A DNA stretch of 64,000 nt. Origin: an uncultured Alphaproteobacteria bacterium (lineage in GTDB: Bacteria; Pseudomonadota; Alphaproteobacteria; HIMB59; GCA-002718135). Where the stretch lies: the NCBI GenBank assembly GCA_902576125.1, contig CACGUF010000002.1:145-64144 (forward strand), read 5' to 3'. The notes beneath the pieces are model-generated. The model saw only the letters and a program-made list of their open reading frames with translations. It was not told where the DNA came from and did no database searches. Positions within the stretch are counted from its first letter, which is position 1. Every line of letters begins with the position of its first letter. Both the position numbers and the translations under genes were made by a program. Shown piece by piece: positions 12,639-45,075 of this stretch.

Positions 12639-12694
12639 AAAATAATTTATATTAGTATATGTTTTTAATAAGTATTTTATACATCTAAATTATG

Positions 12695-13879: not shown

Positions 13880-13924
13880 AATTTTTTAAGCTACATACTT
13901 TAAGAAAATGATTTATTAATGTCA

Positions 13925-13962: not shown

Positions 13963-13975
13963 AAAGAAGAAAAAT

Positions 13976-18147: not shown

Positions 18148-18149
18148 AA

Positions 18150-18647: not shown

Positions 18648-18694
18648 TCATAATAATTAATAGTCTAATGAAAATAATACAAGAGTTTATTTTT

Positions 18695-22615: not shown

Positions 22616-22621
22616 AGAATA

Positions 22622-23785: not shown

Positions 23786-24788
23786 CCATAACTCCTTTTC
23801 TAATTCTTGGATCCATGATTGCTAATAGTATATCAGTAACAAAATTTACAAAAACTATTGTAGCTGTTAATAAGAATATAATAGCACCTGCTAATTGTTG
23901 ATCATTAGATCTAGCTAAAGCCTCAATCAACAATGCGCCAGCTTCAGTCAAAATTAAAATTAAAGCAACTACTGGTAGAGCACTAAATATTCTATTTAAA
24001 TCAAAACCAATCGAATTTATTACAGGTCCAAGCGAGTGCTTTGCGGGATAACGCCATAATAAACTCATACCTGATATTCCTCTAGCTCTTGCAGCCATAA
24101 CATAAAGTTTATCATTTTCATCTAACATTAATGCTCTAACAGTTTGGAGCGCAAAAGCAGTAGCATTCCACCCAAGAACAAAAATAGGCAGCCATGCCCT
24201 AGCAAGAAAATCTTTTAACTTATCAGCAGACCAAGGCGCATTTTCATATTCCTGAGAGAATAAACCTGTCATAGTATCTCCATAATAAACTGTCATAAAA
24301 AGCATAATACAAAGTGCTACTAAAAAATTCGGTAGTGCTATTCCTAGATAACTAACAAATTTAAGAGACTGATCTAAAGAGACATATTTTGTCGTGGCGG
24401 AAATAATACCGACTGGTATCGCTATTAAATAAGAAAAGATTAACGCTACTAAACATATGGTAAGTGAGAGCACAAACCTCCCACTAAGAAGATCATTGAT
24501 ATTCATTCGAAGAATACAGCTATCTCCAAAATCTTGATTTACCACAATATCCGAAACCCATTTTCCGTATCTATAAAAAAATGGTTTATCTAAACCTAAG
24601 CGAATTTTTTCAGCTTCAATATCTTCAAATGTTATTTGAGAACCTTGTGTATTTTTAAAAGCTAAATATCTTTCTGCACATGTGCCAGGAACTAATTCCA
24701 TTAATGAAAAGACTATAAAACAAACTATGAGTAATGTTACAATTGCTAAAAAAGCTCTTGTTAATGTGAATTGGATAAAATTAATCAT
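23775..24788 (-). CDS. Opp/Dpp-type ABC transporter permease (DppB/OppB-like)
   Basis: Six-TM permease with an EAA-like loop (YVMAARARGISGMSLLWRY). Confidence 0.8.
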   Translation of the reverse strand: MINFIQFTLTRAFLAIVTLLIVCFIVFSLMELVPGTCAERYLAFKNTQGSQITFEDIEAEKIRLGLDKPFFYRYGKWVSDIVVNQDFGDSCILRMNINDLLSGRFVLSLTICLVALIFSYLIAIPVGIISATTKYVSLDQSLKFVSYLGIALPNFLVALCIMLFMTVYYGDTMTGLFSQEYENAPWSADKLKDFLARAWLPIFVLGWNATAFALQTVRALMLDENDKLYVMAARARGISGMSLLWRYPAKHSLGPVINSIGFDLNRIFSALPVVALILILTEAGALLIEALARSNDQQLAGAIIFLLTATIVFVNFVTDILLAIMDPRIRKGVMGGG

Positions 24789-24820
24789 ATTTTGATTTTA
24801 GTTAATTAACCATTAAGAAT

Positions 24821-24861
24821 AATTAAAAAAAGAAAAGCGGCAATATAAAATTGCCGCTTTT
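24821..24861 (-). terminator. Intra-operon rho-independent terminator/attenuator between the binding-protein and permease genes
   Basis: GCGGCAAT (24837-24844) pairs with ATTGCCGC (24850-24857) across a 5-nt loop. On the reverse strand the stem is followed by TTTTCTTTTTTT. It starts 22 nt after the binding-protein stop codon. Confidence 0.75.
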
Positions 24862-24882
24862 AAAGATATTTATTTACTTATC

Positions 24883-26943
24883 TTATTCGTCTAACCACCA
24901 CTGAGTAGCTAGATATGGATAAGTTCTATAATACTCATAAGAAGTTGTTTTGAATTGAGTAAAGTTTTTCAAAGCATTTCTATGATATGTTGGGAATGGT
25001 GCTTTTACAGTACCAATTAACAAAGTTTGTTCTGTTAACATGGTAGTGATTTTTTCACCCCACTCGTTAGATTCAGCTGTGCCTAAAGCATATGATTGAA
25101 ATTTATCAATCCCATCACTTAAGTCATAAACCCACTGAGGAGGTTCTACACCGTCTGAGCCATTACTATCTATATAAGCAGCCCATAACATACCTTGAGT
25201 ATGGTTGAAGTAGTTACCAAATGGAGCTTTAAATGTTTCAGGGTTACCTGCGATAATAGCCAATGGTTGACCTTTATCCCAAGCGTGAACATCTAAAGCA
25301 TTTGAAGATTGTGAACCACGATATTCATCAGGTGTAACTTCTTTAAAAGTTGTTTTAACACCAACATCATTCCACATACGTGCAACTAGTTCAACTTCAA
25401 CACCACCAATACCTTGAGTAGCGTAGTCAATATTCACTGCAAAAGGAGATCCGTTTGGAAGTTCTCTAAAACCATCTCCATCTACATCTTTTAATCCAAC
25501 TTCATCTAGAAGTGCATTAGCACCATCTGGATCATACTGAGTCATATGCATTTTGATTTCATCTGAAACAAAATCAGGTGCAGGTGAAATACCAACAAAC
25601 TGCTCTACAACACCCATACCATAATAAGCTACATCGTTAATCTCATTTCTATCAAGTGCAATTGACATTGCTTGACGGAAACGAATATCTCCATAAACTT
25701 TACGTTTTTCCATATCTGGATGAGTTACATTAAAGCTAAATAATGCAGCACCACAACCTGGGTTAATTTGAAGATTATATGCTCCAGAATCAGCACCATC
25801 TAATAACTGAGGAGCAGATTCAAGTTGAACAGATTGAGATTTATAATCAACTTCACCATTAACAAGTTTTAACAATCTAATCTCATTTTCATTGATATAT
25901 CTTTCATTTTGATAATCAATGTATGGTAATTGATTTCCAGCAGTATCAACTTGGTGAAAATAAGGATTAGCAGCGTAAACTCTTCCCTCAGTAGTATCTT
26001 CAATAGTCATATATGCTTCTAATGAAGGATAAGCAGCGTATTCTAAACCACTCACAAGATCAGGGTTTCTCAATAAAGGAGTTGGAGTATCTGTCCAGCC
26101 TGAGTTACCATAATAAGCAGCGAGAGCATCCCAACCATCTACAAAACCTAAAGCTTGTGCATTAGCATCAGCATTAGAGTCTATTTCAGGATGAAATTGT
26201 TCTAAGAAATGTGCAGGCATAAAAAATTGATTGTATGTCCATGCAATAGTTGCTGTTAAACCAGGAAAAGGTGATGGTAAGTTAAATCTAGCAGTTACAT
26301 CATCGATAACATCAACCGTCATTGGTTCACCACCAACAAGAAGGTATGGATATGGTTTTTCTCTAATTTTTGGATTCATCATTAGATCTTCATACCAAAA
26401 TTCAATATCTCTTGCTGTAAATGGTTCTCCGTTTGACCACTTATGTCCTTTTCTTAATGTAAAAGTTAAGGTTGTAAAATCATCATTCCACTCAAAACTT
26501 TTAGCTACATTTGGAACAATAGTTGTTAAATCATCAGCAAATCTCAATAAGTTTACGTGACGAGTCGATAACATATCTGAAGTACCAGCTTCAGTAGCAT
26601 TTGATAAGAAGTTAATCGTACCACCGTACTTACCAATTGAATCATAAGGTCTAACAACTAGCGGCTCATCTGGAAGTCTATCTCCAACTGGAGGTAAAGC
26701 TTTATTACCCTGAATACTTGCATTAATACTTGCAATATTTGGGTTTTCCTTAAATTGCATTTCGCAACCTGCTAATTGTTCAAACTCATCTAATTCGTAC
26801 TGTTGAGTATATTGTCCAGCATCAACACCATTTGGATTACTTTGAGTTGAACCATTACCAGCGCAAGCACCAGCAAAAGAATAACTACTCCATGATATTG
26901 AAGCTAAAGAAAATACAACAGCTAAAATTAATTTTTTAAACAT
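24883..26943 (-). CDS. ABC transporter substrate-binding protein, family 5, unusually long (686 aa)
   Basis: Signal peptide (MFKKLILAVVFSLASISWSSYSFA) and SBP_bac_5-like body. Located upstream of the two permease genes and two ATPase genes. Confidence 0.8.
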   Translation of the reverse strand: MFKKLILAVVFSLASISWSSYSFAGACAGNGSTQSNPNGVDAGQYTQQYELDEFEQLAGCEMQFKENPNIASINASIQGNKALPPVGDRLPDEPLVVRPYDSIGKYGGTINFLSNATEAGTSDMLSTRHVNLLRFADDLTTIVPNVAKSFEWNDDFTTLTFTLRKGHKWSNGEPFTARDIEFWYEDLMMNPKIREKPYPYLLVGGEPMTVDVIDDVTARFNLPSPFPGLTATIAWTYNQFFMPAHFLEQFHPEIDSNADANAQALGFVDGWDALAAYYGNSGWTDTPTPLLRNPDLVSGLEYAAYPSLEAYMTIEDTTEGRVYAANPYFHQVDTAGNQLPYIDYQNERYINENEIRLLKLVNGEVDYKSQSVQLESAPQLLDGADSGAYNLQINPGCGAALFSFNVTHPDMEKRKVYGDIRFRQAMSIALDRNEINDVAYYGMGVVEQFVGISPAPDFVSDEIKMHMTQYDPDGANALLDEVGLKDVDGDGFRELPNGSPFAVNIDYATQGIGGVEVELVARMWNDVGVKTTFKEVTPDEYRGSQSSNALDVHAWDKGQPLAIIAGNPETFKAPFGNYFNHTQGMLWAAYIDSNGSDGVEPPQWVYDLSDGIDKFQSYALGTAESNEWGEKITTMLTEQTLLIGTVKAPFPTYHRNALKNFTQFKTTSYEYYRTYPYLATQWWLDE

Positions 26944-27060: not shown

Positions 27061-27969
27061 TTAAAGCCAAACCGGGTTTGTCCAGGCAAAATCGCCAAAA
27101 TCATTAGCAATACTGACCCTAAACCAATCTGATGGATACTTTTTTAGGTCAAATTCAGCCTGTGTAATATTTTTTCCGTTCTGACTCATGGATTTAGCTC
27201 CTTGACCAACAATACAAACTTGATTTGAAGGGGAACACTGAATATTTACTTTATAGTTATCAATTTTAAAATCAAAAATTTCAACTCCTGTAGAAGAATA
27301 ATATTGTCCATTTTTTAAAGCATTTAAAATTGATCTTTCTGATAATTTATCCGCAGCAACCATCACCCATCCACCTCCAGAATCTTGCATCTTAAAATGA
27401 GAGTCATCTGTAGCAGTTAAAAATATTCTATTATTTTCTTGCAATAAATAATCTGCTGCTGCAGTACCAAAACCACGTTGAGCTTCTATGTGACATGAAT
27501 GATTATAAATTTCAATGCCATGTGCATGACTTAAAGAAAGACATTCATCAAATGTTAGAGAATACCATTCTGGATGAGCGATTGTAACAAACGCACCTGC
27601 TTGAATTGCTCTTTGAACTAAACGAGGTGCTGTTTCTTTTTCATCAGCACATTTAAAATCTAATGGTAAACCATTTGCAACAATATGCCAAAGTTCATCT
27701 TTAACATATTTTTTACCTAGACAATGAAGTTCTGCTGATGGAATAGTTATAAAGTCTTTTTGATTAAGATGTTTTGTTTGTAATACTGTTTCAGCTGCAA
27801 ATTTTGTATCTTTCCATAAATGATCTGAAAGGCATGTAAAATCATAACCTATTTCCTTATACTTATTAACAACTTCTTGTGGATTTAAAGCTCCATCTGA
27901 ATGATTGGAATGTCCATGCAAATTACCTTTAAAGTACTTATGTTTATTTTTTGATGGCAATAAATCCAT
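27061..27969 (-). CDS. PHP-domain metal-dependent phosphoesterase
   Basis: N-terminal motif GNLHGHSNHSDG and later His/Asp motifs (AHPEW, TDDSH) typical of the PHP fold. Confidence 0.7.
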   Translation of the reverse strand: MDLLPSKNKHKYFKGNLHGHSNHSDGALNPQEVVNKYKEIGYDFTCLSDHLWKDTKFAAETVLQTKHLNQKDFITIPSAELHCLGKKYVKDELWHIVANGLPLDFKCADEKETAPRLVQRAIQAGAFVTIAHPEWYSLTFDECLSLSHAHGIEIYNHSCHIEAQRGFGTAAADYLLQENNRIFLTATDDSHFKMQDSGGGWVMVAADKLSERSILNALKNGQYYSSTGVEIFDFKIDNYKVNIQCSPSNQVCIVGQGAKSMSQNGKNITQAEFDLKKYPSDWFRVSIANDFGDFAWTNPVWL

Positions 27970-28030
27970 AAATATTATTAGACTAAATTTATTTATTTTT
28001 AATCAAAATAAAATCTATATAATTTCATTC

Positions 28031-29083
28031 ATGTTAACAACAGTTATTGGGGCTTATCCTAAACCAAATTATTTAAAAATTACTGATTGGTTTAATGCAT
28101 CAGGAGGGACAGACACTCAATTTCCTACAAAGTTTTATAATAATGAAATTAAACAAATGGGTAATGAAGCTGAAAAATTATTTATTCGTGCTACTAAAGA
28201 AATAATTCATGATCAAGAAGAGTGTGGGATTGATATAATTACAGATGGTGAAGTTCGTAGAGAAAATTATATTCATTATCACTGTAGACATTTAGAAGGT
28301 ATAGATTTTAATCATCTTACCGAAAAAGTTGCAAGAACAGGGAATTATAAATGTTGGCTGCCAACAATAACAAACAAAATATCAGCAGCAGATCCTTTCT
28401 TAGTAGATGAATGGAAAAGTAATCAGACTCTAACAGATAAACCAATAAAAATTACAATTCCTGGACCAATGACTATTGCCGACACAATAGCAAATTCCTA
28501 TTACAAATCAGATGATGAAATGGGATATGATTTAGCAATAGCTATCAATATAGAAATTAAAAGATTAGTTGAGGCTGGCTGTAAATATATACAGGTAGAT
28601 GAACCTCTTTTTGCACGCAAACCTGAAAACGCTCTTAACTTTGGAATTAGTAATCTTGAAAAATGTTTTGAAAATATTAATGATAGTAGTATTGAAAAAA
28701 TCACACATATTTGTTGTGGATATCCTGACAAAATTGATGCTATTGATTATCCAAAAGCTCCATTAGACTCTTATAAGAAAATTACAAAGGCACTGGATAA
28801 CTCAATCATTGATAGTATCTCGATTGAAGATGCTCACCGTTACATTGATTTGAGCTTGCTATCAGATTATCAGAGGACAAAAGTAATTTTTGGTGTGATC
28901 AAAATTGCTAGTTCTTCAATTGAAACTGAGGAGGAAATTGAAAATAGAATTAAGGAGGCACTTAATTATATTTCAAAAGAGCAACTAATTTTAGCACCAG
29001 ATTGTGGGCTAGGACATTTATCTAGAGAGCTCGCTATTCAAAAACTAAAGAAAATGTCATCAGTTGCAAGAAAATTTAGTTAA
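28031..29083 (+). CDS. Cobalamin-independent methionine synthase catalytic-domain protein (core-MetE / MetE C-terminal-like)
   Basis: GAYPKP start region and Zn-ligand contexts ITHICCGYP and APDCGLGHL. The start is moved to the in-frame ATG at 28031, because the 42 upstream codons of the track ORF overlap the PHP gene. Confidence 0.75.
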   Translation: MLTTVIGAYPKPNYLKITDWFNASGGTDTQFPTKFYNNEIKQMGNEAEKLFIRATKEIIHDQEECGIDIITDGEVRRENYIHYHCRHLEGIDFNHLTEKVARTGNYKCWLPTITNKISAADPFLVDEWKSNQTLTDKPIKITIPGPMTIADTIANSYYKSDDEMGYDLAIAINIEIKRLVEAGCKYIQVDEPLFARKPENALNFGISNLEKCFENINDSSIEKITHICCGYPDKIDAIDYPKAPLDSYKKITKALDNSIIDSISIEDAHRYIDLSLLSDYQRTKVIFGVIKIASSSIETEEEIENRIKEALNYISKEQLILAPDCGLGHLSRELAIQKLKKMSSVARKFS

Positions 29084-30224: not shown

Positions 30225-31085
30225 TTATAAACCATGCAATTGATTATAGCCTGATACAACTGGAGATGTCCAATCATTTAGAACTTTAGATGTTGTTTTG
30301 AAAACTGATACTTTTAAAGGATAGCACTGAGCTGTGTCTGATGAATGTTCAGAACTACAATCCCCTCCAGGACAAGCAGATAATACTCCAAGTAGATCTA
30401 TTTCAGCAAAAAATTCCAAAAAATCTCCCGGTCTCACTGGGCTTGCCTTCATAAAATATTGATGTGTATCAAGAGTAAAGCCTGTGCACATAAAAACATT
30501 AAGAACATCATGAACTAAATTTTCAGCTTCCTCTTTTAATAAATTTTTTTCTTTAACTAAAGCTCTTGTTAGATTGGAGTGACAACAATAATGATATTGA
30601 TTATTTGTAATTAAATGATTTGTATAGGGATCACACCTTGTCCCAATAACATCGTGTACTGAACCACCATCTCTATCAAATCCATACCAATCTAGAGTGT
30701 CATATGTGATAGTAGCAAGTGGTCTTATATGAGGAAATGTACTCCACATTCGATCTTTCAGTGAGAGATGTGTTCCGTGTAAAGCGCGAGTTTTGCCTGA
30801 ATAAAACTTTTCTTTATAATTATTTGCATTGAGCAAATTTAGATCCCCAACTTGAGGGCCTTCAATACTTTCTATTCTAAAAAAATATCCTGCTTTTACG
30901 TCAAAACATTTTGCATCTCTTGGGGGAATTATAACTTCATCTATTTTTTCCAGCTGTTCTCTAGCTTGTTGATAATTTTCCCAATAAGGAATTTTTAATG
31001 TATCATTTGGATAACAAATAACAGGAGAATTTAATTTTCGATTTTCCCCATCTACAGGTTTTTGATGTTGGGAATATTTTTTCAT
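30225..31085 (-). CDS. DUF1989 family protein (urea-carboxylase-associated / carboxyguanidine-deiminase-like fold)
   Basis: IPPRDAKCFDVKAGYFFRIESIEGPQVGDLNL matches the characteristic DUF1989 N-terminal block. 286 aa. Confidence 0.6.
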   Translation of the reverse strand: MKKYSQHQKPVDGENRKLNSPVICYPNDTLKIPYWENYQQAREQLEKIDEVIIPPRDAKCFDVKAGYFFRIESIEGPQVGDLNLLNANNYKEKFYSGKTRALHGTHLSLKDRMWSTFPHIRPLATITYDTLDWYGFDRDGGSVHDVIGTRCDPYTNHLITNNQYHYCCHSNLTRALVKEKNLLKEEAENLVHDVLNVFMCTGFTLDTHQYFMKASPVRPGDFLEFFAEIDLLGVLSACPGGDCSSEHSSDTAQCYPLKVSVFKTTSKVLNDWTSPVVSGYNQLHGL

Positions 31086-31111
31086 ACTTAATTCATTTCA
31101 TAAGAAAACAT

Positions 31112-32089
31112 TTATTTATATGCAATTACACTAATAATCTCAAACATAATAGATGCAGCTACCATTGAAGTAATATTATTCTTTTGATCTTTGCTAGGCA
31201 TTAAGCATACAACATCACCGCCAATAACATTTTTGCTTTTAACAGATTGAATAAGTGCTTTTGCCTCATCAATAGTAAAGCCAGTAAAACTAGGTTCTAT
31301 ATTTGATACTGCAGGAGCAACAGTGGAATCAAGTGAGTCTAAATCAAACGTAATATAAACAGGATTATCACCAATTTTATCTAAAGTTTCTCTGATGACA
31401 TCATCAATGCCTCTTTTTTTAAATTCATCCATTGTTACTACATTGTAACCAAGGTCATAACTTGGTTGCAACCAATCTAAAGTTCTAGGATTGCCACGCA
31501 TACCGATTTGCATACTAGTTTTTGGATCTATAATTCCTTGCTCAACTAAGTAAGCACCCCAATGAGCAGCACTTTTTTTAGCACCCATAAAATGATCTAA
31601 TTGACTAAAGGTGTCAGTGTGAGCATCGATATGAAGAAATGATATTTTTTTTCCATTTGTTAATTCTAGATTATTACTTCCTAAACCTTGAAGAATGCCA
31701 CCAGTAATAGAATGATCTCCACCAATAGATACAACTGGTTTTTTTTCTTTTGCAATTCTCTCATAAAAATTAGTAATATCTTCAATGCATCTTTCATTAT
31801 TATTTGCATGTGGAAGAGCAACATCGCCTAAGTCGAATATTTTTTTTTGTTTCCATGGATTAATATTGAAATCTAAATGTACTCTTCTTAATCCAGCAGA
31901 TACATGTCTAACAGCTCTTGGACCTAAATGTTGATCTCTTTCTGTTGTTCCATTACCAGTACTATGAGGTACACCAACAAGAGCAATATCACATTTTGAT
32001 AAATCTTTATGATGTTCACAGCGAAACAATGTTGGTATTCCCCACCAATACATGGTCTCCATCATCAACTCATCATTTGAGTTAGTCAT
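31112..32089 (-). CDS. Ureohydrolase family enzyme with a divergent substrate loop (candidate guanidino-compound amidinohydrolase)
   Basis: Mn-ligand motifs GGDHSIT, IDAHTDTF and TFDLDSLD are retained. The usual DPxxAPGTGTPExGG is replaced by DSTVAPAVSNIEPSFTG. Confidence 0.75.
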   Translation of the reverse strand: MTNSNDELMMETMYWWGIPTLFRCEHHKDLSKCDIALVGVPHSTGNGTTERDQHLGPRAVRHVSAGLRRVHLDFNINPWKQKKIFDLGDVALPHANNNERCIEDITNFYERIAKEKKPVVSIGGDHSITGGILQGLGSNNLELTNGKKISFLHIDAHTDTFSQLDHFMGAKKSAAHWGAYLVEQGIIDPKTSMQIGMRGNPRTLDWLQPSYDLGYNVVTMDEFKKRGIDDVIRETLDKIGDNPVYITFDLDSLDSTVAPAVSNIEPSFTGFTIDEAKALIQSVKSKNVIGGDVVCLMPSKDQKNNITSMVAASIMFEIISVIAYK

Positions 32090-32098
32090 TTTATTAGA

Positions 32099-33214
32099 TT
32101 AATTTATTGCAGTGCTTGGATCAACAAAATTATAACCCAAATCTTCTGCTACTGCTTTGTAAGTAACATTTCCTTGGCAAACATTTAAACCTGCAAGAAA
32201 ATTTGCATCACTATTTAAAGCATCTCGATAGCCACTTTGCGCTAAGTGCAATACAAAAGGTATTGTTGCTGCATTTAGAGCAAAAGTAGAAGTTCTTGGT
32301 ACACCTCCTGGCATATTAGCAACACAGTAATGCACAACATCATCAATAACATAAGTTGGGTTAGCATGAGTTGTTGGTTTGCTTGTTTCTACACATCCAC
32401 CTTGATCGATAGCAACATCAACAATTACAGAACCTCTTTTCATCACTTTAAGCATATCTTTTGTAATTAATTTAGGAGCATTAGCACCTGGAATTAAAAC
32501 TCCACCAATTAATAAATCAGTTTCAGCAACATAATCTTCTAAATTTATATCATCTGAGACAAGTGGGATAATCCGATCACCAAATTTTGCTTGAAGTTCT
32601 TTGAGACGATCTTCCGATTTATCAACAACATGAACTTTTGCTTCCATTCCCGTTGCAATGGTTGCTGCATTTTCACCTACAACTCCACCACCCAAAATAA
32701 GAACATTCCCGGGATTAACTCCAGGAGCCCCGCCAATCAGTAAACCTCTTCCACCTTGGGGTTTTTCTAAGCAGTGTGCTCCAGCTTGTATTGACATTCT
32801 TCCAGCAACAGCACTCATTGGAGCTAACAATGGCAATCTATTATTTTCATCAGTTACAGTCTCATATGCAATACAAATTGATTTTGAGTCTACTAATCCC
32901 TTAGTTAAATCTGGAGCTGCTGACAAATGTAAATAGGTAAATAAGACTTGATTTTCTCTTAACATATTTACTTCTTCAGATTGCGGTTCTTTGACTTTTA
33001 CTATCATATCTGAATCATTAAATACATCGCCAGCTGTTGGCACAATTTTCGCTCCAGCTTTTTCATAATCTACATTTTCAAAACCAGCACCAAAACCAGC
33101 ATTACTCTCAACTAAAACATTATGTCCATGATTTGTTAGTTCCTGTACGCTTGTAGGAGTAAGACCAACTCTAGACTCTTGAGCCTTGATCTCACTAGGA
33201 ATGCCAACTTTCAT
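32099..33214 (-). CDS. ald: Alanine dehydrogenase
   Basis: MKVGIPSEIKAQESRVGLTP N-terminus and NAD fold GGGVVGENAA, both typical of AlaDH/PNT-family Ald. Confidence 0.9.
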   Translation of the reverse strand: MKVGIPSEIKAQESRVGLTPTSVQELTNHGHNVLVESNAGFGAGFENVDYEKAGAKIVPTAGDVFNDSDMIVKVKEPQSEEVNMLRENQVLFTYLHLSAAPDLTKGLVDSKSICIAYETVTDENNRLPLLAPMSAVAGRMSIQAGAHCLEKPQGGRGLLIGGAPGVNPGNVLILGGGVVGENAATIATGMEAKVHVVDKSEDRLKELQAKFGDRIIPLVSDDINLEDYVAETDLLIGGVLIPGANAPKLITKDMLKVMKRGSVIVDVAIDQGGCVETSKPTTHANPTYVIDDVVHYCVANMPGGVPRTSTFALNAATIPFVLHLAQSGYRDALNSDANFLAGLNVCQGNVTYKAVAEDLGYNFVDPSTAIN

Positions 33215-34554
33215 TATTGTTCCTTAAAATAATTAGTAATACCAGTTCTTAGTTTCTCAATCATTTCATCAATATGTTTTTTTTCAGATATAAATGGTGG
33301 TGCAACGATTAAACAATCTCCTGTAGCTTTTAAGCTTAAACCAGAAGCAAATAAATGTTTAAAACAAGCATATCCAGCTTTTCCAAGACGCTCATCCATT
33401 CTTAAGTCAATACCTCCCATCATTCCATATCCTCTAATATCAGTGATACCTTCAATATCTTTCAAACTAAATAAGCCATCTAAGAAATATGGAGACATTT
33501 CTTTAGCCCGATTAAATAAATCTTCTTTATCAAAAATATCTTGCATTGCTAATCCAGCTGCAACTGAACAAGGTATTGCGGAGTAAGTATAACCATGAAA
33601 AAATTCGATAGCTCCTTTTGGTGCCGCATCAACCATTGAGTCATAAATATGCTCTCTAGATGCCACCGCTCCAAGAGGAACAACACCATTTGTGATTGCT
33701 TTTGCCATTGTTATAATATCAGGAGTAACTTCAAATGCTTGAGAGCCAAAAGGTTCCCCCATTCTTCCCCAACCTGTTATAACTTCATCAAAGATAAGAA
33801 GAATACCATGTTTATCACAAATCTGTCTAAGTTTTTTTAAATATCCTTTTGGTGGTACCAAAGTTCCTGTAGATCCTGCTACTGGTTCGACAATACATGC
33901 TGCAATATTCTCTCCACCTATATGTCCTGCAATTCTCTCTAAATCTTCTGCAAGGTAATCACCTTTTTCAGGCTCCCCACAAACAAATTTATTTTCTGGT
34001 AAGTGTGTATGACGTAAGTGATGAGTATTTGGCATTAAGATACTTGAAAAAGTTTTTCTATTTGCAACCATTCCACCAACAGAAATTCCTCCAATATTCA
34101 TTCCGTGGTATCCTCTTTCACGACCAACGATATGATGACGATGTCCCTCACCTTTAGCTTTAAAGTAAGCTATAGCAGTTTTTATTGCTGTATCTACTGC
34201 AGATGAACCACACATAGTAAAAAATATTCGATTTAAATCTTCTGGGGTATGTTTAGAAATTTTTCTTGCTAATTCAAAAGAGCCATTAAAACCTTGTTGA
34301 AAAGGTTGAACATAATCTAGTTGTTCAAGTTGTTTATAAACAGCTTCTCTAATTTCTTGTCGACCATGACCTGCAGGACTGCAAAACAATCCAGAGCTTG
34401 CATCAATTAATTGATTACCATGATGATCAGTGTAATACATTCCTTCAGCTTTTACCATTAGCCTAGGATTGTCTTTAAAATCGTGATTAGATGTAAATGG
34501 CATCCAATGTTCTTCAAGTGAATTAGGTAATTCGTTTCTATTTTCTAAATCCAT
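33214..34554 (-). CDS. Class III omega-amino acid:pyruvate aminotransferase (taurine:pyruvate or beta-alanine:pyruvate type)
   Basis: Strong resemblance to beta-alanine/taurine-pyruvate transaminases (HWMPF, GYHG, DEVITGWGR, PLP-Lys in ITMAKAITNG). The start is set at the ATG at 34554, which follows GGGGA, rather than the TTG at 34566. The stop overlaps the ald start. Confidence 0.85.
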   Translation of the reverse strand: MDLENRNELPNSLEEHWMPFTSNHDFKDNPRLMVKAEGMYYTDHHGNQLIDASSGLFCSPAGHGRQEIREAVYKQLEQLDYVQPFQQGFNGSFELARKISKHTPEDLNRIFFTMCGSSAVDTAIKTAIAYFKAKGEGHRHHIVGRERGYHGMNIGGISVGGMVANRKTFSSILMPNTHHLRHTHLPENKFVCGEPEKGDYLAEDLERIAGHIGGENIAACIVEPVAGSTGTLVPPKGYLKKLRQICDKHGILLIFDEVITGWGRMGEPFGSQAFEVTPDIITMAKAITNGVVPLGAVASREHIYDSMVDAAPKGAIEFFHGYTYSAIPCSVAAGLAMQDIFDKEDLFNRAKEMSPYFLDGLFSLKDIEGITDIRGYGMMGGIDLRMDERLGKAGYACFKHLFASGLSLKATGDCLIVAPPFISEKKHIDEMIEKLRTGITNYFKEQ

Positions 34555-34686
34555 AAATATCCCCAAATATGCAAAATTTATCTAGCCTTACATCATACAA
34601 ATAGCTTATCCAAGAACAATTCTTGCTGTTTTTCTTAATTTCATAGGAAAAATTGACGCCCTAGTATAGAAGAAAAAAAATCATTT

Positions 34687-35598
34687 ATGCTAACAAAAAA
34701 AGAAGCCTACATACCCAATAATTTAATATCATTGGCAAAAAAAACACCTGATCTATCAGCAGGAATTATATGTGCCGATCATGACTCTACTATAGAGTCA
34801 GCTAAAAAGTCGGTAGAATTGAGTTTAATAAAACCAATTTTTATTGGAAATAAAAAAAAAATCATTGAAAAGGCAAAAAAAATCAAATGGGAAATAAATT
34901 CTTATGAAATAATTGATTCATCAAAAGATGTTGAGGCAGCTATGCTTGGGGCTGAACTTGCTAGAGACAATAAAATCAAAGTAATCATAAAAGGTAATCT
35001 TCATACAGATGTATTAATGAAAACATACTTAAAAAAAGAGTATGGTCTAATTGAAGGAAAAAGATTAAGTCATATTTGGCATATGACCATTTCTCGAGAT
35101 GATAAACCACTTTTTATAACAGATGGTGCATTAAATGTTGCGCCTCGCCTTGATGTAAAAATGCATATCCTAAAAAATGTAATTAAATTTGCAAATCAAA
35201 TACAAATTTCTAAACCAAGAGTAGCTATTTTATCGGGAACTGAAGATCCTATAGAAAGTATGCCTAGTTCTATGGAAGCAAAAGAATTAATGGAACGTGC
35301 AATAAATGAAAACATTAATGCTTATGTTCATGGTCCTCTTGCATTTGATAATGCTATTTCACCTGATGCAGCCAAAATAAAAAAAATTTCTAATGAGGTT
35401 GCAGGAAAAGCAGACATCCTTTTAGTCCCAAATTTAGAAACTGGAAATTCTTTATCAAAAATAATGGTTTATTTTATGGGTGCTTGCGCTGCAGGATTTA
35501 TTGTTGGTGGCAAAGTTCCTGTTGTTGTGACTAGTAGAGCAGATAACTCCGCTTCACGAATAGCTTCCATAGCTGCTGCAGTAATAGCAACTCAATAG
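34687..35598 (+). CDS. pta: Phosphate acetyl/butyryl-transferase family protein
   Basis: PTA_PTB family pattern (KGNLHTDVLMK, ITDGALNVAP, VPNLETGN). Divergent from the aminotransferase-ald unit. Confidence 0.65.
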   Translation: MLTKKEAYIPNNLISLAKKTPDLSAGIICADHDSTIESAKKSVELSLIKPIFIGNKKKIIEKAKKIKWEINSYEIIDSSKDVEAAMLGAELARDNKIKVIIKGNLHTDVLMKTYLKKEYGLIEGKRLSHIWHMTISRDDKPLFITDGALNVAPRLDVKMHILKNVIKFANQIQISKPRVAILSGTEDPIESMPSSMEAKELMERAINENINAYVHGPLAFDNAISPDAAKIKKISNEVAGKADILLVPNLETGNSLSKIMVYFMGACAAGFIVGGKVPVVVTSRADNSASRIASIAAAVIATQ

Positions 35599-36500
35599 TG
35601 AAAAATAATAAATTGATAAGTGTTGCATTTTTAGCAATTGGCGCAACTTTATTTGGCTCATTAATGGGTACAGGTGTTAAATTCCTCTCAGATGATCTTC
35701 ATCCAATAATTATTTGTTTTTGGAGATGTTTAATAGGACTGATATTAATTACTCCTTTTGTTGTAAGAAATAATTTCAAAGCTCTTGAGACTAAAAATAT
35801 GCGCTTACAAATTATTAGAGCATCAATTAACATTCTCTCAATGATCTGCTGGTTCAGTGCTATAGGTATGATGCACTTTGAAAAAGCAACTGCACTTGGA
35901 TTTACTACTCCTCTTTTTACAACTCTTCTTGCCGTAATTGTTCTTGGAGAAGTAATTCGTTTTCATCGAACAGCTGCTCTTATACTTGGCTTTATAGGTA
36001 TTCTGATCATCATAAGACCAGGGTATATGCCTTTTGAGTTAGGAGTCATTTTAATGTTAATTGCCTCTTTTAGTTTTTCTTTTGTACTTATTTTTGTAAA
36101 AAAATTATCTGCTACTGATTCTAGTCTAACTATAATTTTTTATCATCTCTTATATATGACACCTGTTTTTTTCATCTTGGCTTTGTTTTATTGGGAAAAT
36201 ATTAGCCTAAATCAATTAATAGTTTTTGTTTTTATGGGAGCTTCAGGATTATTATCACACTGGTGCCTAGCACAAGCATTTAAATTTTCAGACACAACTT
36301 TTGTTATGCCTTTACAATTTACTAAACTGATTTGGGCTTCACTAATAGGTTTATTCATTTTTTCAGAAAAACCAGACATATGGACATGGCTTGGTGGAAT
36401 AGTTATATTTATTTCAGTAGTATACATTACATACCGTGAGGCCTTTAAGAAAAAAGGAACTGAAAAACCAATTCAGGTTGATAGAGCAATTATAAATTAA
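35598..36500 (+). CDS. DMT superfamily (EamA-like) transporter
   Basis: About 10 TM helices. The GTG start overlaps the pta TAG stop by 1 nt (TAGTG). Confidence 0.65.
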   Translation: MKNNKLISVAFLAIGATLFGSLMGTGVKFLSDDLHPIIICFWRCLIGLILITPFVVRNNFKALETKNMRLQIIRASINILSMICWFSAIGMMHFEKATALGFTTPLFTTLLAVIVLGEVIRFHRTAALILGFIGILIIIRPGYMPFELGVILMLIASFSFSFVLIFVKKLSATDSSLTIIFYHLLYMTPVFFILALFYWENISLNQLIVFVFMGASGLLSHWCLAQAFKFSDTTFVMPLQFTKLIWASLIGLFIFSEKPDIWTWLGGIVIFISVVYITYREAFKKKGTEKPIQVDRAIIN

Positions 36501-38371
36501 ACAATTTTCTTATCTTTTAAAAAATTAATAATTTGATCTGCAAGTTGCTCTGCACTACTTTTTTTTGTATCAAGAGTTAGATCAGGATTTTCTGGGCTCT
36601 CATATGTGGAATCAATCCCTGTAAAATTTTTTAATTCTCCTGCTCTTGCTTTTTTATATAATCCCTTTGGATCTCTCTTTTCACATTCTTCTAATGATGT
36701 ACTAACAAATACTTCAAAAAATTCTCCTAACTGAAACAACTCTTTTGCCATTTGCCTCTCTGAGCGGAAAGGAGAAATAAAAGAAACTAGAGTAATTAAG
36801 CCAGCATCAGCCATTAGCTTTGAAACCTCAGCAACACGTCGAATATTTTCTACTCGATCCGTATCAGTAAAACCCAAATCTTTATTCAATCCATGACGAA
36901 CATTATCACCATCTAATAAATAAGTTCGTTTGTTGATAGTATAAAGTTTTTGCTCAAGAATATTGGCAATTGTTGACTTACCCGATCCTGACAACCCTGT
37001 AAACCATATAACACATGGTTGTTGAGCATTTTGTTTTGAGCGAGTTTCTTTATTAATACTCATTTCATGCCAAGAAATATTAGAAGAACGACGTAGAGCA
37101 TGATCAATCATGCCTGCGCCAATTGTCTTATTATTGTATGGGTCAATAATTACAAAACTGCCTAATTGGTGATTGTTTTTGTATGAAGTAATACTATGCA
37201 TTTTATTTAATGCAATTTTACAATAAGCAATGTCGTTTAAATTCAATCTTTTGGTTGCTATTTCTTCGTAAGAGTTCACATTAATACTGTGAACTAAATC
37301 TGTTATTTGTCCATTAATATAAGTGTTATTAAAACGAAAAATATAATTACGCTCTGGGAGCATTGATTCTTGCTCCATCCAAACAATATGAGCTGCAAAC
37401 TTATCAGCTTTAATGATTGCCTTATTATCTTTTGTTAGAATGGTGTCTCCTCGCGAGATATCTAATTCATCTTTTAATGTTAATGTTACAGACTGATTAG
37501 TAAAAGCGACATTCAACTCACCTTTAGGTCCATAAATATTTTTAATTGATGTTTGATAATTAGATAATGCTGTTGTTATCAAATCTCCTTTTGATATTTT
37601 GCCAGAAGTAATAGTTCCAGAGTATCCTCTAAATTCTGAACTTGATCTATTAACCCACTGAACTGGCATGCTAAATGCATTTTTTACATTTTCATCTTGA
37701 ATATGAATATTTTCTAAAGTTTCAATAAGTGAAAGACCTGTATACCATTTAGTATTTTCAGAAATCGAAAAAACATTTGCTCCTTTTAGAGCTGAAAGTG
37801 GTATATAATTTGTTGAAAAAAAATTAAAATTTTTAGTAAAATTTTTATATTCATTAACTATTTTTTCAAAATTGTTTTGATCATATTTAACTAAATCCAT
37901 TTTGTTGATTGCAACTACTACATGTTTTATCCCTAAAAGATTAACAATAAAACTATGTCTTTTTGTTTGTTCTAAAACTCCTTTTTGAGCATCAATTAGA
38001 ATAATTGCCGCATCAGAATTAGATGCACCTGTTGCCATATTGCGTGTGTACTGTTCATGTCCAGGTGTATCAGCAATAATAAATTTGCATTTAGGTGTTT
38101 CAAAAAAACGATATGCAACATCAATAGTAATCCCTTGCTCTCGTTCAGCTTGTAAACCATCTATTAGCAAAGCTAAATCTAGTTCTTTTCCCTGTGTGCC
38201 ATATTTTTCACTTTCAGCCTTAGCTTGATTCATTTGATCTAGAAAAACATTTTGAGAATCATATAATAATCTTCCTAATAGAGTTGATTTACCATCATCT
38301 ACTGAACCACATGTTAAAATCTTAATTTGGTTTTTTTTATTTTGATCTTGAAAAAATTTTTTTAAATCCAT
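36497..38371 (-). CDS. cysNC: Bifunctional sulfate adenylyltransferase subunit 1 (GTPase) / adenylylsulfate kinase
   Basis: N-terminal GTPase motifs (GSVDDGKST, DTPGH, NKMD). C-terminal APS kinase P-loop (WFTGLSGSGKSTIA). 624 aa. Confidence 0.9.
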   Translation of the reverse strand: MDLKKFFQDQNKKNQIKILTCGSVDDGKSTLLGRLLYDSQNVFLDQMNQAKAESEKYGTQGKELDLALLIDGLQAEREQGITIDVAYRFFETPKCKFIIADTPGHEQYTRNMATGASNSDAAIILIDAQKGVLEQTKRHSFIVNLLGIKHVVVAINKMDLVKYDQNNFEKIVNEYKNFTKNFNFFSTNYIPLSALKGANVFSISENTKWYTGLSLIETLENIHIQDENVKNAFSMPVQWVNRSSSEFRGYSGTITSGKISKGDLITTALSNYQTSIKNIYGPKGELNVAFTNQSVTLTLKDELDISRGDTILTKDNKAIIKADKFAAHIVWMEQESMLPERNYIFRFNNTYINGQITDLVHSINVNSYEEIATKRLNLNDIAYCKIALNKMHSITSYKNNHQLGSFVIIDPYNNKTIGAGMIDHALRRSSNISWHEMSINKETRSKQNAQQPCVIWFTGLSGSGKSTIANILEQKLYTINKRTYLLDGDNVRHGLNKDLGFTDTDRVENIRRVAEVSKLMADAGLITLVSFISPFRSERQMAKELFQLGEFFEVFVSTSLEECEKRDPKGLYKKARAGELKNFTGIDSTYESPENPDLTLDTKKSSAEQLADQIINFLKDKKIV

Positions 38372-39270
38372 TAAAAATATCCTTCTTGTTTCTTTTTTTC
38401 CATTGATCCAATTTGATCATTATCTATTGCCCTTCCTTCTCTTTCAGAATTCTTACTTTCTAATAATTCAACGATAATTTCTTCTACTGATTTAGCTGAT
38501 GACTCAATAGCGCCAGTTAATGGATAGCAGCCTAAAGTTCTAAAACGTATTAATTTGTTTTGTACTTTTTCATAATCTTTTATATCTAATCTTTTATCGT
38601 CAACCATAAGAAGTAAATTATCTCTTTGAATTACAGGTCGTTCTTCTGCGAAATATAATGGGACGATATTTATTTTTTCTTGATAAATGTATTGCCATAC
38701 ATCTATTTCTGTCCAGTTCGATAAAGGGAAAACTCTAACACTTTCTCCTTTAGCTATTTTTGTATTAAATAAATTCCATAACTCAGGGCGTTGATTTTTT
38801 GGATCCCAATGATGATGCTGATCTCTAAAGGAAAAAATTCTCTCTTTCGCTCTTGATTTTTCTTCATCTCTTCTTGCCCCTCCAAAAGCTGCATCAAACT
38901 TATATTTGTTTAAAGCTTGTTTAAGTGCTTGTGTCTTCATTATATCTGTATGAAGTTTTGAACCATGAGAAATTGGTCCAATATTATTTTTCACTCCCTC
39001 TTGATTGATATGAACTAATAAATCTAAATCATATTCTTTTTCAATATCATCACGAAATTTAATCATATCCTTAAATTTCCAAGTAGTGTCAACATGTAAT
39101 AATTTAAATGGAAGTTTTCCAGGAGCAAAAGCTTTAAGTGCTAAGTGCAGCATGACTGCAGAATCCTTTCCAATGGAGTATAACATGACAGGATTGTCAA
39201 ACTCAGATGCTACTTCACGGATAATATGAATACTTTCAGATTCTAATTTTTCTAAATGTGATAAATTCAT
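38371..39270 (-). CDS. cysD: Sulfate adenylyltransferase subunit 2
   Basis: PAPS-reductase-fold CysD blocks ([41 protein letters not shown]). Confidence 0.9.
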
Positions 39271-39273
39271 CTC

Positions 39274-40068
39274 TTACTTAAGTTTAAGGTTGCCTATAGC
39301 ATAGAATTGCGGATTAAGAATATCCTCTTTTGTATTATAATATACATCACTGTCTTTAAAGGTAAGGATTTTACCACCAGCTTCGTTAACAATTATATGT
39401 CCAGCAGCAATATCCCATTCAGATGTTGGTCCAAATCGTGGGTAAATATCAGCTAGACCTTCAGCAATTAAACAAAACTTTATTGAACTTCCCACTTGAA
39501 CAATTTCTGCACCTGGATATTTTTCATTAACCCAACTGGTAAAGATACTATTTGAATGAGATCGACTGCCAATTATACGAGTTATATGTGATTGATCAGA
39601 AACAACAATTTTTTTAGCTTCATCAAGATGACTTAGTTCAATATTTGTATTTATTTTATAAGATCCATTATTTTTTTGAGCAAAATAGATTAATGATTTT
39701 GCAGGTACAAATATAATTCCTAAAATTGGCTTATTATTTTCAATCAATGCTATATTAACGGTAAACTCTCCATTTTTTTTAATAAATTCTTTGGTGCCAT
39801 CCAACGGATCAACAAGCCAATATTTTTTCCAATTTTTTCTTTTATTCCATTCTACTAGTGATTCTTCACTTAAAATTGGAATGGTTTTATCCAAATTATT
39901 AAGTGAGTTTAAAATTATTTCATTTGAGGCTAAATCAGCTTTAGTTAAAGGCGATGAGTCATTTTTATCAGTAACTTCAATATCATCGTTGTAATATTCA
40001 AGAACTTTATTCCCTGCCTTTATAGAAATATTACAAATATCTAGTAACAATTTTTTATTCTTAATCAT
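39274..40068 (-). CDS. cysQ: 3'(2'),5'-bisphosphate nucleotidase (inositol monophosphatase fold)
   Basis: Motifs LSEES, WLVDPLDGTKEF and EWDIAAG. First gene of the cysQ-cysD-cysNC unit. Confidence 0.85.
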   Translation of the reverse strand: MIKNKKLLLDICNISIKAGNKVLEYYNDDIEVTDKNDSSPLTKADLASNEIILNSLNNLDKTIPILSEESLVEWNKRKNWKKYWLVDPLDGTKEFIKKNGEFTVNIALIENNKPILGIIFVPAKSLIYFAQKNNGSYKINTNIELSHLDEAKKIVVSDQSHITRIIGSRSHSNSIFTSWVNEKYPGAEIVQVGSSIKFCLIAEGLADIYPRFGPTSEWDIAAGHIIVNEAGGKILTFKDSDVYYNTKEDILNPQFYAIGNLKLK

Positions 40069-40116: not shown

Positions 40117-41316
40117 ATGGAAAAAGAAATTTATAAAATCATAGATAAAGAAAAGTTAAGTGTTGTTAGTGAGAATATAGAAAAAGCGCACGGTCTTCCT
40201 AATGAATGTTACTTGAATGGACCTTATAGTAAAATTGAACGTAAAAAAATCTTCGAAGAAAAGTGGGTTACAATAGGTGTTGCAAGTTCAGTTCCAAATC
40301 CAGGAGATGTTAAACCTTTTGATCTACTTGGTATTCCACTAATCATAGTTAGGGATAAACAAAAAAAAATTAGAGTTTTCCATAATGTTTGTAGTCACCG
40401 AGGATATAAGTTAGTTAGTGAAACTTGCTCTCTTAAAAATGTATTAAGATGTCCTTATCACTCATGGTCATATGACTTGGAAGGGAGGTTAATTGCCACA
40501 CCTCATTTAGGTGGAATAAATAAAAATGAACATCATGATTTTGATAAATCTAAAAGTGGATTGAAAGAAGTGCGATCATCTGTTTGGCTCGACTTAGTTA
40601 TGGTAAATATTTTGGGGAATGAATTACCTTTTGAAAAATATATAGAACCGCTTGAGGAAAGATGGTCTGAGTTTTGGACAAAACAAGATCAAGAAATGAT
40701 CTGTCATGCAAAAGATTATGGATATTTCAAATTAGAAGCAAAGTGTAATTGGAAATTTGCAATAGAAAACTATTGTGAAAGTTATCACTTACCTTTTGTT
40801 CATCCTGGTCTAAATGCCTATTCAAAAATTGATGATCATTATCATATACAAGGACTACCTAATCGTTTTGCTGGACAAGGTACACTTGTCTATAATCCTA
40901 GATTTGAAAATAATGAAAAATTTCCAACATTCCCTGGATGGAGAAAGGGGAAAGAAGATCATGCTGAATATGTCGCTTTATTTCCAAACGTAATGCTTGG
41001 TATTCACAAAGACCATTACTATGCTTATTGGTTAGAGCCTGTTGCGCATAATTTTACTAAGGAACATATGGAAATCTATTATGTAGGTGAAGAGGCTGCT
41101 CTTGATGATTCGTATAAATCATTGAGAAAACAAAATTTTGAACAATGGCATAGCATTCAAACTGAAGATTTAAATATTATTGAAGGTATGCAGGAAGGAA
41201 GAAATTCACCTGTTTACAATGGAGGTAATTTTTCTCCAGCTCTTGATAATCCTACTCACCATTTTAATAAGTGGGTAGCCACTTCATTGACCGATAATGA
41301 TTTTTCAAATAATTAA
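40117..41316 (+). CDS. Rieske [2Fe-2S] non-heme-iron oxygenase, alpha-subunit type (Stc2/GbcA/choline-monooxygenase-like)
   Basis: Rieske motif CSHRG...x17...CPYHSW and a mononuclear-iron motif in ENYCESYHLPFVHP. Confidence 0.8.
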   Translation: MEKEIYKIIDKEKLSVVSENIEKAHGLPNECYLNGPYSKIERKKIFEEKWVTIGVASSVPNPGDVKPFDLLGIPLIIVRDKQKKIRVFHNVCSHRGYKLVSETCSLKNVLRCPYHSWSYDLEGRLIATPHLGGINKNEHHDFDKSKSGLKEVRSSVWLDLVMVNILGNELPFEKYIEPLEERWSEFWTKQDQEMICHAKDYGYFKLEAKCNWKFAIENYCESYHLPFVHPGLNAYSKIDDHYHIQGLPNRFAGQGTLVYNPRFENNEKFPTFPGWRKGKEDHAEYVALFPNVMLGIHKDHYYAYWLEPVAHNFTKEHMEIYYVGEEAALDDSYKSLRKQNFEQWHSIQTEDLNIIEGMQEGRNSPVYNGGNFSPALDNPTHHFNKWVATSLTDNDFSNN

Positions 41317-41327
41317 ATAATAATTAT

Positions 41328-43370: not shown

Positions 43371-43376
43371 ATACAA

Positions 43377-44651: not shown

Positions 44652-44697
44652 ATTATAATAATATACATTATACTTATAAACAAAAACAGAGGAAGAT

Positions 44698-45075
44698 ATG
44701 GATGAAGAATTATTTAAAAAAGGTTTAGAAAAAAGAAAAGCTACTTTAGGCAAAGAATATGTAGAAAAAAATTTAGAACAAGCTGATGAATTTACTCTTC
44801 CTTTTCAAAAAGCAATGACTGAATGGTGTTGGGGTTTTGGCTGGGGAGATGAAGTAATTGATATGAAAACTCGATCAATGATGAACCTATCAATGATTGG
44901 GGCTTTAGGTAAAATGCAAGAATGGGAAATTCATTGCAGAGGGGCAATAACCAATGGAGTATCTAAAGAAGAGATAAGGGCTATTATTCATGTAATAGGC
45001 ATTTATTGTGGAGTCCCTCAGGCGTTAGAATGTTTTAGAGTGGCAAAAAAAGTGTTCGGAGAAAAAAATCTTTAA
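44698..45075 (+). CDS. Carboxymuconolactone decarboxylase (CMD/PcaC-like) family protein
   Basis: 125 aa that aligns by eye with gamma-CMD (RKATLGKEYV, WGDEVIDMKTRS, IGIYCGVPQA). Confidence 0.75.
   Translation: MDEELFKKGLEKRKATLGKEYVEKNLEQADEFTLPFQKAMTEWCWGFGWGDEVIDMKTRSMMNLSMIGALGKMQEWEIHCRGAITNGVSKEEIRAIIHVIGIYCGVPQALECFRVAKKVFGEKNL

Follow-up and report, generated by a model that had tools for sequence, protein, structure and literature searches.

Gene Organization of the Locus

We analyzed a 64-kb stretch of DNA (referred to below as the window) from contig CACGUF010000002.1 of an uncultured alphaproteobacterium of the SAR11-like HIMB59 lineage, which carries four closely spaced minus-strand genes including one that encodes an atypical ureohydrolase. 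The GC content of the window is approximately 30%, and exact-sequence look-ups of three of its proteins returned no record. In the direction of transcription, the four genes encode a class-III omega-amino-acid:pyruvate aminotransferase of the AptA/BauA-like clade (33214–34554; PF00202 and NCBIfam AptA), an alanine dehydrogenase (Ald, 32099–33214; TIGR00518), an arginase-fold ureohydrolase (or amidinohydrolase) of an uncharacterized subfamily (31112–32089; PF00491), and a DUF1989 protein (30225–31085; PF09347), which is the last gene of the unit where it is present. The stop codon of the aminotransferase gene and the start codon of ald overlap by one base (33214), and the following genes are separated by gaps of 9 nucleotides (nt; ald to ureohydrolase) and 26 nt (ureohydrolase to DUF1989). 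On the other side of a divergent intergenic region of 132 nt (34555–34686), two plus-strand genes encode a short-type phosphate acetyltransferase (Pta, 34687–35598; PF01515 and NF006045) and an EamA/DMT-family transporter (35598–36500; PF00892, 124 bits). The eamA start overlaps the pta stop, and the transporter gene is translationally coupled to pta; its product may serve the pathway discussed below as an importer or exporter. All these positions and spacings agree with the list of open reading frames (ORFs), and those of the four minus-strand genes and of the divergent gap are as the first-pass annotation of this DNA had given them.

The longest ORF of the aminotransferase (33214–34566) begins with a TTG codon at 34566. 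Since the homologs of this protein are 445–446 amino acids (aa) long, the ATG start at 34554, and hence the 132-nt gap, are supported. The promoters of both transcription units would lie in this divergent region, where one weak promoter-like match was detected (34653–34681, plus strand). Promoter and terminator pattern scans yielded site counts no higher than those obtained with shuffled sequence, so that the single-operon reading rests on the spacing and the conservation of the genes. As part of the module proposed below, the four minus-strand genes could quite possibly form one transcription unit.

Amino Acid Sequence of the Ureohydrolase

The ureohydrolase matches the Arginase family PF00491 with 217 bits and falls below every NCBIfam equivalog cut-off, including those of the agmatinases (121.8 bits with TIGR01230 vs. 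a cut-off of 174.3, and 167.6 bits with NF002564 vs. 302). Its nearest relatives of solved structure are GpuA (135 bits, 32% identity) and GbuA (121 bits, 31%) of Pseudomonas aeruginosa and the agmatinases (113 bits). The similarity between these scores places the enzyme at a roughly equal distance from all the characterized specificities. Membership of the guanidine hydrolases or metformin hydrolases was considered and rejected, the scores amounting to only 45–80 bits.

The six ligands of the binuclear metal center (H126, D155, H157, D159, D249, and D251, in the motifs GGDH, DAHxD, and DxD) are all kept and invariant, which suggests that the enzyme is catalytically competent. The alignment confirms the atypical character attributed to it by the first-pass annotation. 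Several motifs conserved elsewhere have been exchanged for others that do not vary in the subfamily: the motif PWDGGTTNRxGARHGPR is replaced by PHSTGNGTTERDQHLGPR, the loop APGTGTPExGG is replaced by AP(A/G)VSN(I/L)E with two extra residues, and DVVEVxP is replaced by DVVCLMP, in which an invariant cysteine (Cys295) occupies the place of the canonical glutamate. This glutamate corresponds to Glu277 of rat arginase, which binds the guanidinium of the substrate. In an exhaustive search of cluster representatives, followed by alignment, the cysteine was found to be common to relatives down to approximately 33–36% identity, whereas canonical relatives keep the glutamate. The substitution at the guanidinium-binding position, together with the remodeled GTGTPE loop, suggests that the guanidino end of the substrate is recognized in an altered manner. 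The clade is frequent in metagenomes from the sea, where one cluster at 90% identity may contain as many as 3,586 member sequences. A paper on Pelagibacter polyamines deals with aminopropyltransferases and not with this ureohydrolase.

Conservation in the HIMB59 Clade

All the proteins of the window were compared with 80 species-representative loci. The nearest genomes are single-cell and metagenome-assembled genomes of the HIMB59 clade, the ureohydrolases of which are 90–98% identical to that of the window. The arrangement in which eamA-pta is divergent from the aminotransferase, Ald, and ureohydrolase genes was found in 13/13 informative HIMB59-type species genomes (ureohydrolase identity 82–98%): pta faces the aminotransferase gene in all these loci, and eamA is conserved along with it. 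The DUF1989 gene follows the ureohydrolase gene in five of the 13 loci; in the other eight, the ureohydrolase gene is followed directly by alr or by a MetE-like gene, and no remnant of a DUF1989 gene is detectable. Co-conservation of the four-gene neighborhood, which the first-pass annotation had singled out, thus holds for the aminotransferase-Ald-ureohydrolase core, and fails for the DUF1989 gene in most of these genomes. The same annotation had reasoned that a ureohydrolase placed in such a unit may point to a guanidino substrate. The fact that this gene is fixed in the operon in every HIMB59-type genome examined makes it reasonable to suppose that a guanidino compound feeds the aminotransferase.

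Aminotransferase, Ald, Pta, and Xsc

The taurine degradation pathway of Cook and Denger comprises a taurine:pyruvate aminotransferase (Tpa), an alanine dehydrogenase, a sulfoacetaldehyde acetyltransferase (Xsc), and a phosphate acetyltransferase. The aminotransferase, Ald, and Pta of the window, along with an xsc-like gene, had been read as a set of this taurine (sulfoacetaldehyde) type in the first-pass annotation. The xsc-like gene (46079–47855, minus strand), which consists of two ORFs, proves to encode a true Xsc: with NF005713 (cut-off 620 bits), its N-terminal part scores 389 bits (model positions 2–227) and its C-terminal part 619 bits (219–589). The gene across the divergent region, previously described as pta-like, scores above the cut-off of NF006045 (293.5 vs. 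282 bits), and Ald scores 504 bits with TIGR00518 (cut-off 392). Judging from these scores, Ald, Pta, and Xsc can be assigned to their families with confidence.

The aminotransferase matches Aminotran_3 (PF00202) with 278 bits and passes the NCBIfam AptA equivalog (582 bits vs. a cut-off of 500). A scan of metagenomes with the Xsc of the window brought to light marine contigs (L161, L159, and L157) in which homologs of the aminotransferase, 53–55% identical to it, are located directly upstream of xsc. In L161, an intact xsc directly follows the homolog (55% identical); in L159, the order is aminotransferase-xsc-Ald, and in L157, the aminotransferase gene is near xsc. Homologs of Ald adjoin xsc in L158, L159, and L178, the last of which (59% GC) carries an Ald-xsc-Pta cluster, the Pta of which and that of the window are of one NCBIfam type. 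The nearest plasmid homolog of the aminotransferase, which was found in Novosphingobium (54% identical), is clustered with an aldehyde dehydrogenase gene and a gene of the TauE/SafE sulfite-exporter family. These associations support the taurine-type reading, and the aminotransferase, Ald, Pta, and Xsc probably do constitute such a set. An association of Pta with xsc was also sought in plasmid records, where the Pta homologs (39–40% identical) belong to pta-ackA pairs, and only such clusters were found; the link between Pta and xsc therefore came from L178.

The aminotransferase clade has another face. A homolog in Thalassospira (51% identical) adjoins genes encoding a CoA-acylating methylmalonate-semialdehyde dehydrogenase (mmsA) and enzymes of pyrimidine catabolism. 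With the AptA model, the enzyme of the window scores 582 bits, the xsc-linked homolog 562, the TauE-linked homolog 599, and the mmsA-linked beta-alanine enzyme 765. The contexts observed in other organisms show that the members of this clade serve both beta-alanine and sulfonate routes, and from the gene context in its relatives, we infer that the aminotransferase of the window would be a taurine:pyruvate aminotransferase that produces sulfoacetaldehyde. If so, the AptA and 'beta-alanine' annotations of aminotransferases in marine genomes probably hide taurine aminotransferases.

The aminotransferase also bears on a route via 4-guanidinobutyrate or agmatine, in which the ureohydrolase would yield gamma-aminobutyrate or putrescine for transamination with pyruvate. 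GbuA and the agmatinases are nearly as similar to the ureohydrolase as GpuA is, and polyamine:pyruvate and putrescine transaminases are present among the solved relatives of the aminotransferase (approximately 272–276 bits). However, the aminotransferase is much closer to the BauA/AptA type than to the putrescine enzymes, the ureohydrolase falls below the agmatinase cut-offs, no succinate-semialdehyde or aminobutanal dehydrogenase was found in the window, and the link with pta and xsc would be left unexplained. We therefore hold this route to be highly improbable.

A second source of sulfoacetaldehyde may exist in the same island. The sulfopyruvate decarboxylase genes comE (17578–18147) and comD (18150–18647), both on the minus strand, score 158 bits with TIGR03845 (vs. 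148) and 210 bits with TIGR03846 (vs. 221.5), respectively, and ComDE would be a second feeder of this intermediate.

The GpuA-Like Paralog

The window contains another arginase-family gene (16565–17503, plus strand), 13.6 kb away from the ureohydrolase gene. Its product matches the P. aeruginosa 3-guanidinopropionase (3NIP) over the full length and without gaps, with 378 bits, compared with 266 for GbuA and 173 for SpeB, and in all likelihood it is this protein that acts as the genuine GpuA-like guanidino-acid hydrolase here. Given this separate gene, 3-guanidinopropionate is hardly a convincing substrate for the ureohydrolase in the operon, and the alternative pathway based on this compound in the first-pass annotation is weakened to that extent; the GpuA-like enzyme may still supply beta-alanine to the same aminotransferase.

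In the 3-guanidinopropionate pathway, the ureohydrolase would be a guanidinopropionase and the aminotransferase a beta-alanine:pyruvate transaminase, and malonate semialdehyde would be oxidized elsewhere. This is how the homologs are named by JGI ('guanidinopropionase' and 'beta-alanine--pyruvate transaminase,' rather than Tpa). It is also consistent with the nearest solved structures (GpuA and BauA), the AptA equivalog score, and the mmsA-linked homolog. Besides the far better GpuA ortholog at the other locus, the points that tell against it are that the ureohydrolase lacks the substrate-binding motifs of GpuA as well as being so distant from it, that no malonate- or methylmalonate-semialdehyde dehydrogenase was found in the window, and that the adjacent pta and the xsc-linked aminotransferase homologs would not be accounted for. 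We consider this pathway rather improbable for the operon.

The DUF1989 Protein

The DUF1989 protein scores 146 bits with PF09347 and is a full-length ortholog of PDB 3DI4, which is Ruegeria pomeroyi SPO0365 (428 bits). A Zn site bound by three cysteines is carried by the DUF1989 fold (PMC12560246). The first-pass annotation had linked this protein to a guanidino or urea theme, and this idea is not supported: the protein scores only 38.7 bits with the urea-amidolyase-associated family (UAAP2; cut-off 284.7), which does not place it with CgdAB; its gene is missing from eight of the 13 operons; and neither a urea or guanidine carboxylase nor an allophanate hydrolase was found in the window. An attempt to deduce its function from the gene context failed, as the neighborhoods of its orthologs (66–71% identical) in five genomes, those of Roseovarius, Amphritea, an uncultured alphaproteobacterium, a Sneathiella-like contig, and Coralliovum, are unrelated and share nothing. 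The absence of the gene from most of the related operons, together with the SPO0365/3DI4 type of the protein, suggests that it is a facultative passenger; it is quite possibly co-transcribed where present, and dispensable for the module.

The protein might instead be an integral catalytic partner of the ureohydrolase that works in the manner of CgdAB, for example on urea, on guanidine, or on an intermediate that has been carboxylated. Its gene lies close behind that of the ureohydrolase on the same strand, and occupies the same position in genomes as distant as L025 (ureohydrolase 82% identical); a distant DUF1989 gene (26% identical) is located about 8 kb from a ureohydrolase ortholog in Rhodococcus; and DUF1989 folds are known to function in carboxyguanidine deiminase as well as in trimethylamine N-oxide (TMAO) demethylase. 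In view of the loss of the gene without remnants, the low UAAP2 score, the unrelated neighbors of its orthologs, and the lack of carboxylase or allophanate hydrolase genes in the window, we judge such a partnership to be most unlikely.

Proposed Pathway

The reading that we propose, with some hesitation, is that the operon, the divergent pta-eamA pair, and xsc together make up a catabolic module of the sulfoacetaldehyde type for an amino-sulfonate, fed by the ureohydrolase. The ureohydrolase would split a guanidino (amidino) compound into urea and an omega-amine, the best guess being the conversion of taurocyamine into taurine. The AptA-like aminotransferase would then transfer the amino group to pyruvate, giving sulfoacetaldehyde and alanine; Ald would regenerate pyruvate and free ammonium; Xsc would convert sulfoacetaldehyde and phosphate into acetyl phosphate and sulfite; and Pta would make acetyl-CoA. 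Free taurine would enter at the transamination step. We infer from the logic of the operon that the ureohydrolase feeds the aminotransferase. The choice of taurocyamine as the leading candidate is a guess, made plausible by the fact that the human enzyme GDAH, which has the arginase fold, hydrolyzes taurocyamine and that this compound is an invertebrate phosphagen precursor (PMC9772407).

Several observations weigh against this reading. The xsc gene lies 11 kb away and is split by a +1 frameshift in a run of eight A residues near 47187–47194, within the segment 47139–47218 (minus strand). At this site, a run of seven A residues was found in 8/8 matched metagenome relatives; the N- and C-part matches of the relatives' xsc are contiguous on one strand, and in the same frame where this was checked (e.g., L101); and L159 and L161 have single xsc ORFs of 602 aa. 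The frameshift may be an assembly error or may mark a strain-specific pseudogene. No TauABC or TauKLM taurine transporter and no TauE sulfite exporter were found among the ORFs of at least 150 aa in the window, where the transporters identified are of EamA types, an Opp-type ATP-binding cassette (ABC) system, and others. The best solved relatives of the aminotransferase are beta-alanine:pyruvate and omega-amino-acid:pyruvate transaminases (4B98 and 3A8U, approximately 380 bits). A switch from a carboxylate to a sulfonate substrate would be expected to change the far end of the pocket and not the guanidinium-binding site, and literature searches yielded no biochemical data on the ureohydrolase subfamily. 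The co-conservation of the core genes was observed within a single clade, in which it might reflect inherited synteny.

The Pelagibacteraceae provide a further argument of this kind. Orthologs of the ureohydrolase (66–70% identical) were found at 66 loci in this family, none of which have an aminotransferase, Ald, or Pta gene within 10 kb; DUF1989 genes are likewise absent from the flanks. The ureohydrolase does not, therefore, need an aminotransferase partner. Among the Pelagibacteraceae loci (L026–L090), a divergent EamA/DMT gene directly precedes the ortholog in 53 of the 66, and the two may form a conserved unit that perhaps points to the transporter of the substrate. This EamA was considered as a possible ortholog of either of the nearby EamA proteins of the window, and rejected at an identity of only approximately 25%. 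At 32 of the Pelagibacteraceae loci, a convergent GMC oxidoreductase gene follows the ureohydrolase ortholog.

In other lineages, the ureohydrolase is again found in settings of its own. On plasmids of R. pomeroyi and two other Rhodobacteraceae, the gene that comes after the ortholog (59–60% identical), and overlaps it by 4 nt, is an ortholog of the GpuA-like gene ('speB,' 48–49%). The two products may form a heteromer or act on two related substrates; the tandem pair spans positions 9001–10982 of L091 and 9001–10955 of L093, and sits behind a LysR regulator and a ProU-type (betaine-type) ABC transporter. In a published inventory of transporters, the R. pomeroyi transporter (SPOA0231–0233) has only a generic glycine betaine/proline annotation (PMC10130141 supplement). 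On the plasmid of Rhodobacteraceae M382, an amidinotransferase-family gene and a Zn-dependent hydrolase gene (L093, 3103–5246) are located ahead of the ABC transporter genes and the arginase-family pair, and may correspond to a parallel deiminase/carbamoylase route for guanidino compounds. On a Rhodococcus qingshengii plasmid (L092, 1–8700), the ortholog (55% identical) is divergent from a major facilitator superfamily transporter gene, a creatininase-family gene, and an NCS1 permease gene, and the same region carries an IclR regulator, a flavin adenine dinucleotide (FAD) oxidoreductase, an aldehyde dehydrogenase, and the distant DUF1989 gene mentioned above. In this organism, the neighbors hint that the substrate resembles creatinine or creatine. 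The roseobacter and Rhodococcus contexts indicate a catabolic role for the ureohydrolase, with a nitrogen-rich compound that is imported as its substrate.

The enzyme might accordingly be an independent nitrogen scavenger acting on some other guanidino or amidino compound, such as a creatine-like N-substituted guanidine or agmatine, the product of which is not used by the aminotransferase. The genes would then share an operon because both activities release nitrogen (as urea and ammonium), or as the result of lineage-specific gene shuffling. The Pelagibacteraceae loci, with their EamA pairing, the roseobacter ortholog placed between a betaine-type transporter and a GpuA-like paralog, the neighbors of the Rhodococcus ortholog, and the altered guanidinium-binding site, which suggests an unusual guanidine, are all in keeping with this explanation. 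It does not fit well, however, with the tight spacing after ald, or with the position of the ureohydrolase gene in the operon, which is kept throughout the 13 related genomes while the flanking DUF1989 and alr genes come and go. The latter pattern speaks in favor of selection for expressing the ureohydrolase together with the aminotransferase and Ald, and we regard independent scavenging as unlikely, although less so than the other alternatives.

Returning to the amino-sulfonate module, literature searches brought up no description of this gene combination or of the ureohydrolase clade, in agreement with the first-pass annotation, which had taken the operon type to be new. The pieces of the pathway are known, while neither their combination nor this divergent and abundant clade of ureohydrolases has been described in the literature searched. 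Taken one step further, the Cys-for-Glu clade as a whole, which extends over HIMB59, Pelagibacteraceae, roseobacters, and beyond, might consist of new guanidino-sulfonate hydrolases acting on taurocyamine or a related phosphagen-derived compound and tied to taurine catabolism in HIMB59. If true, this would amount to an unrecognized and abundant sink, in the marine nitrogen and sulfur cycles, for guanidino compounds from animals and plankton; we think this generalization unlikely to hold.

HIMB59, SAR11, and the roseobacters belong to the most abundant marine heterotrophs, and the dissolved organic nitrogen and sulfur compounds that they use are only partly known. The placement of the ureohydrolase in the operon suggests that abundant ocean bacteria may use a guanidino compound, for instance taurocyamine, as food. 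The fixed place of this gene in a taurine-type operon offers a testable lead, both toward a new substrate in the sea and toward the chemistry of a divergent arginase-superfamily branch.

Other Genes in the Neighborhood

A short MetE-like (Meth_synt_2) gene (27905–29083, plus strand; its true start is probably near 28028) faces the end of the operon in convergent orientation in all the HIMB59-type loci. Homologs of this gene (51–53% identical) face Ald in the same way in two of the contigs with xsc, L158 (6531–6677) and L159 (4145–5515), and the association thus recurs across lineages. On the other side, pta-eamA is adjoined by cysNC, cysD, and a cysQ-like gene (36497–40068, minus strand), which correspond to the activation of sulfate to 3'-phosphoadenosine 5'-phosphosulfate and to a 3'-phosphoadenosine 5'-phosphate phosphatase. 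The cys genes are located between the operon and xsc in L012, L128, and L135, which gives the neighborhood a sulfur theme.

The region 40117–44753 encodes a Rieske oxygenase (weakly GbcA-like), a 680-aa old yellow enzyme/flavin mononucleotide and pyridine-nucleotide oxidoreductase, and an M24 hydrolase resembling DddP (357 bits, short of the cut-off of 600). Homologs of the Rieske and M24 genes lie just downstream of the ureohydrolase ortholog at some Pelagibacteraceae loci (L034 and L081, at approximately 11660–14200). Between the two arginase-family genes, the minus-strand stretches 17578–19744 and 20640–26943 carry comDE, an aldose 1-epimerase gene, another eamA, and the Opp-type ABC transporter genes. 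The binding protein of this transporter is unusually long (686 aa), and in MarineAlpha5_Bin5 (L001), an SBP_bac_8-type ABC system is present in its place.

Comparison with Known Systems

The module resembles the taurine Tpa-Ald-Xsc-Pta pathway in that one island carries genes for what would be the same four activities, those of the aminotransferase and Ald being joined in an operon, with pta across the divergent promoter region and xsc at a distance, and in that aminotransferase-xsc and Ald-xsc-Pta operons exist among the relatives of its genes. It differs from this pathway in that its aminotransferase belongs to the AptA/BauA (beta-alanine:pyruvate) clade and a ureohydrolase gene, sometimes along with a DUF1989 gene, is inserted in the operon. 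In addition, the window has no TauABC or TauKLM, TauR regulator, or TauE, and in this assembly, xsc is unlinked and frameshifted.

The DUF1989 protein shares its fold with CgdAB (urea-carboxylase-associated proteins 1 and 2) and with the DUF1989 domain of TMAO demethylase. Unlike the former, it is encoded by a single gene of the SPO0365/3DI4 type rather than by an A/B pair, and no carboxylase, allophanate hydrolase, or GCV_T domain was found near it.

The R. pomeroyi megaplasmid cluster SPOA0230–0235 (LysR, ProU-type ABC transporter, arginase-family protein, and 'speB') holds orthologs of both hydrolases of the window. In this cluster, however, the two genes are in tandem behind an ABC importer and are accompanied by no aminotransferase, Ald, or Pta gene, which adds to the points against the proposed module listed above.

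As regards the ureohydrolase itself, it differs from GpuA and GbuA of P. aeruginosa in its low identity with both, in the replacement of the GTGTPExGG loop, and in the change of the glutamate to an invariant cysteine, and the real GpuA-like gene of this genome is at another locus. The enzyme has in common with GpuA and GbuA, and with human GDAH/AGMAT, the arginase fold with its six binuclear-metal ligands, and the logic proposed here would be the same as theirs, namely that a guanidino acid is split into urea and an omega-amino acid, which then undergoes transamination.

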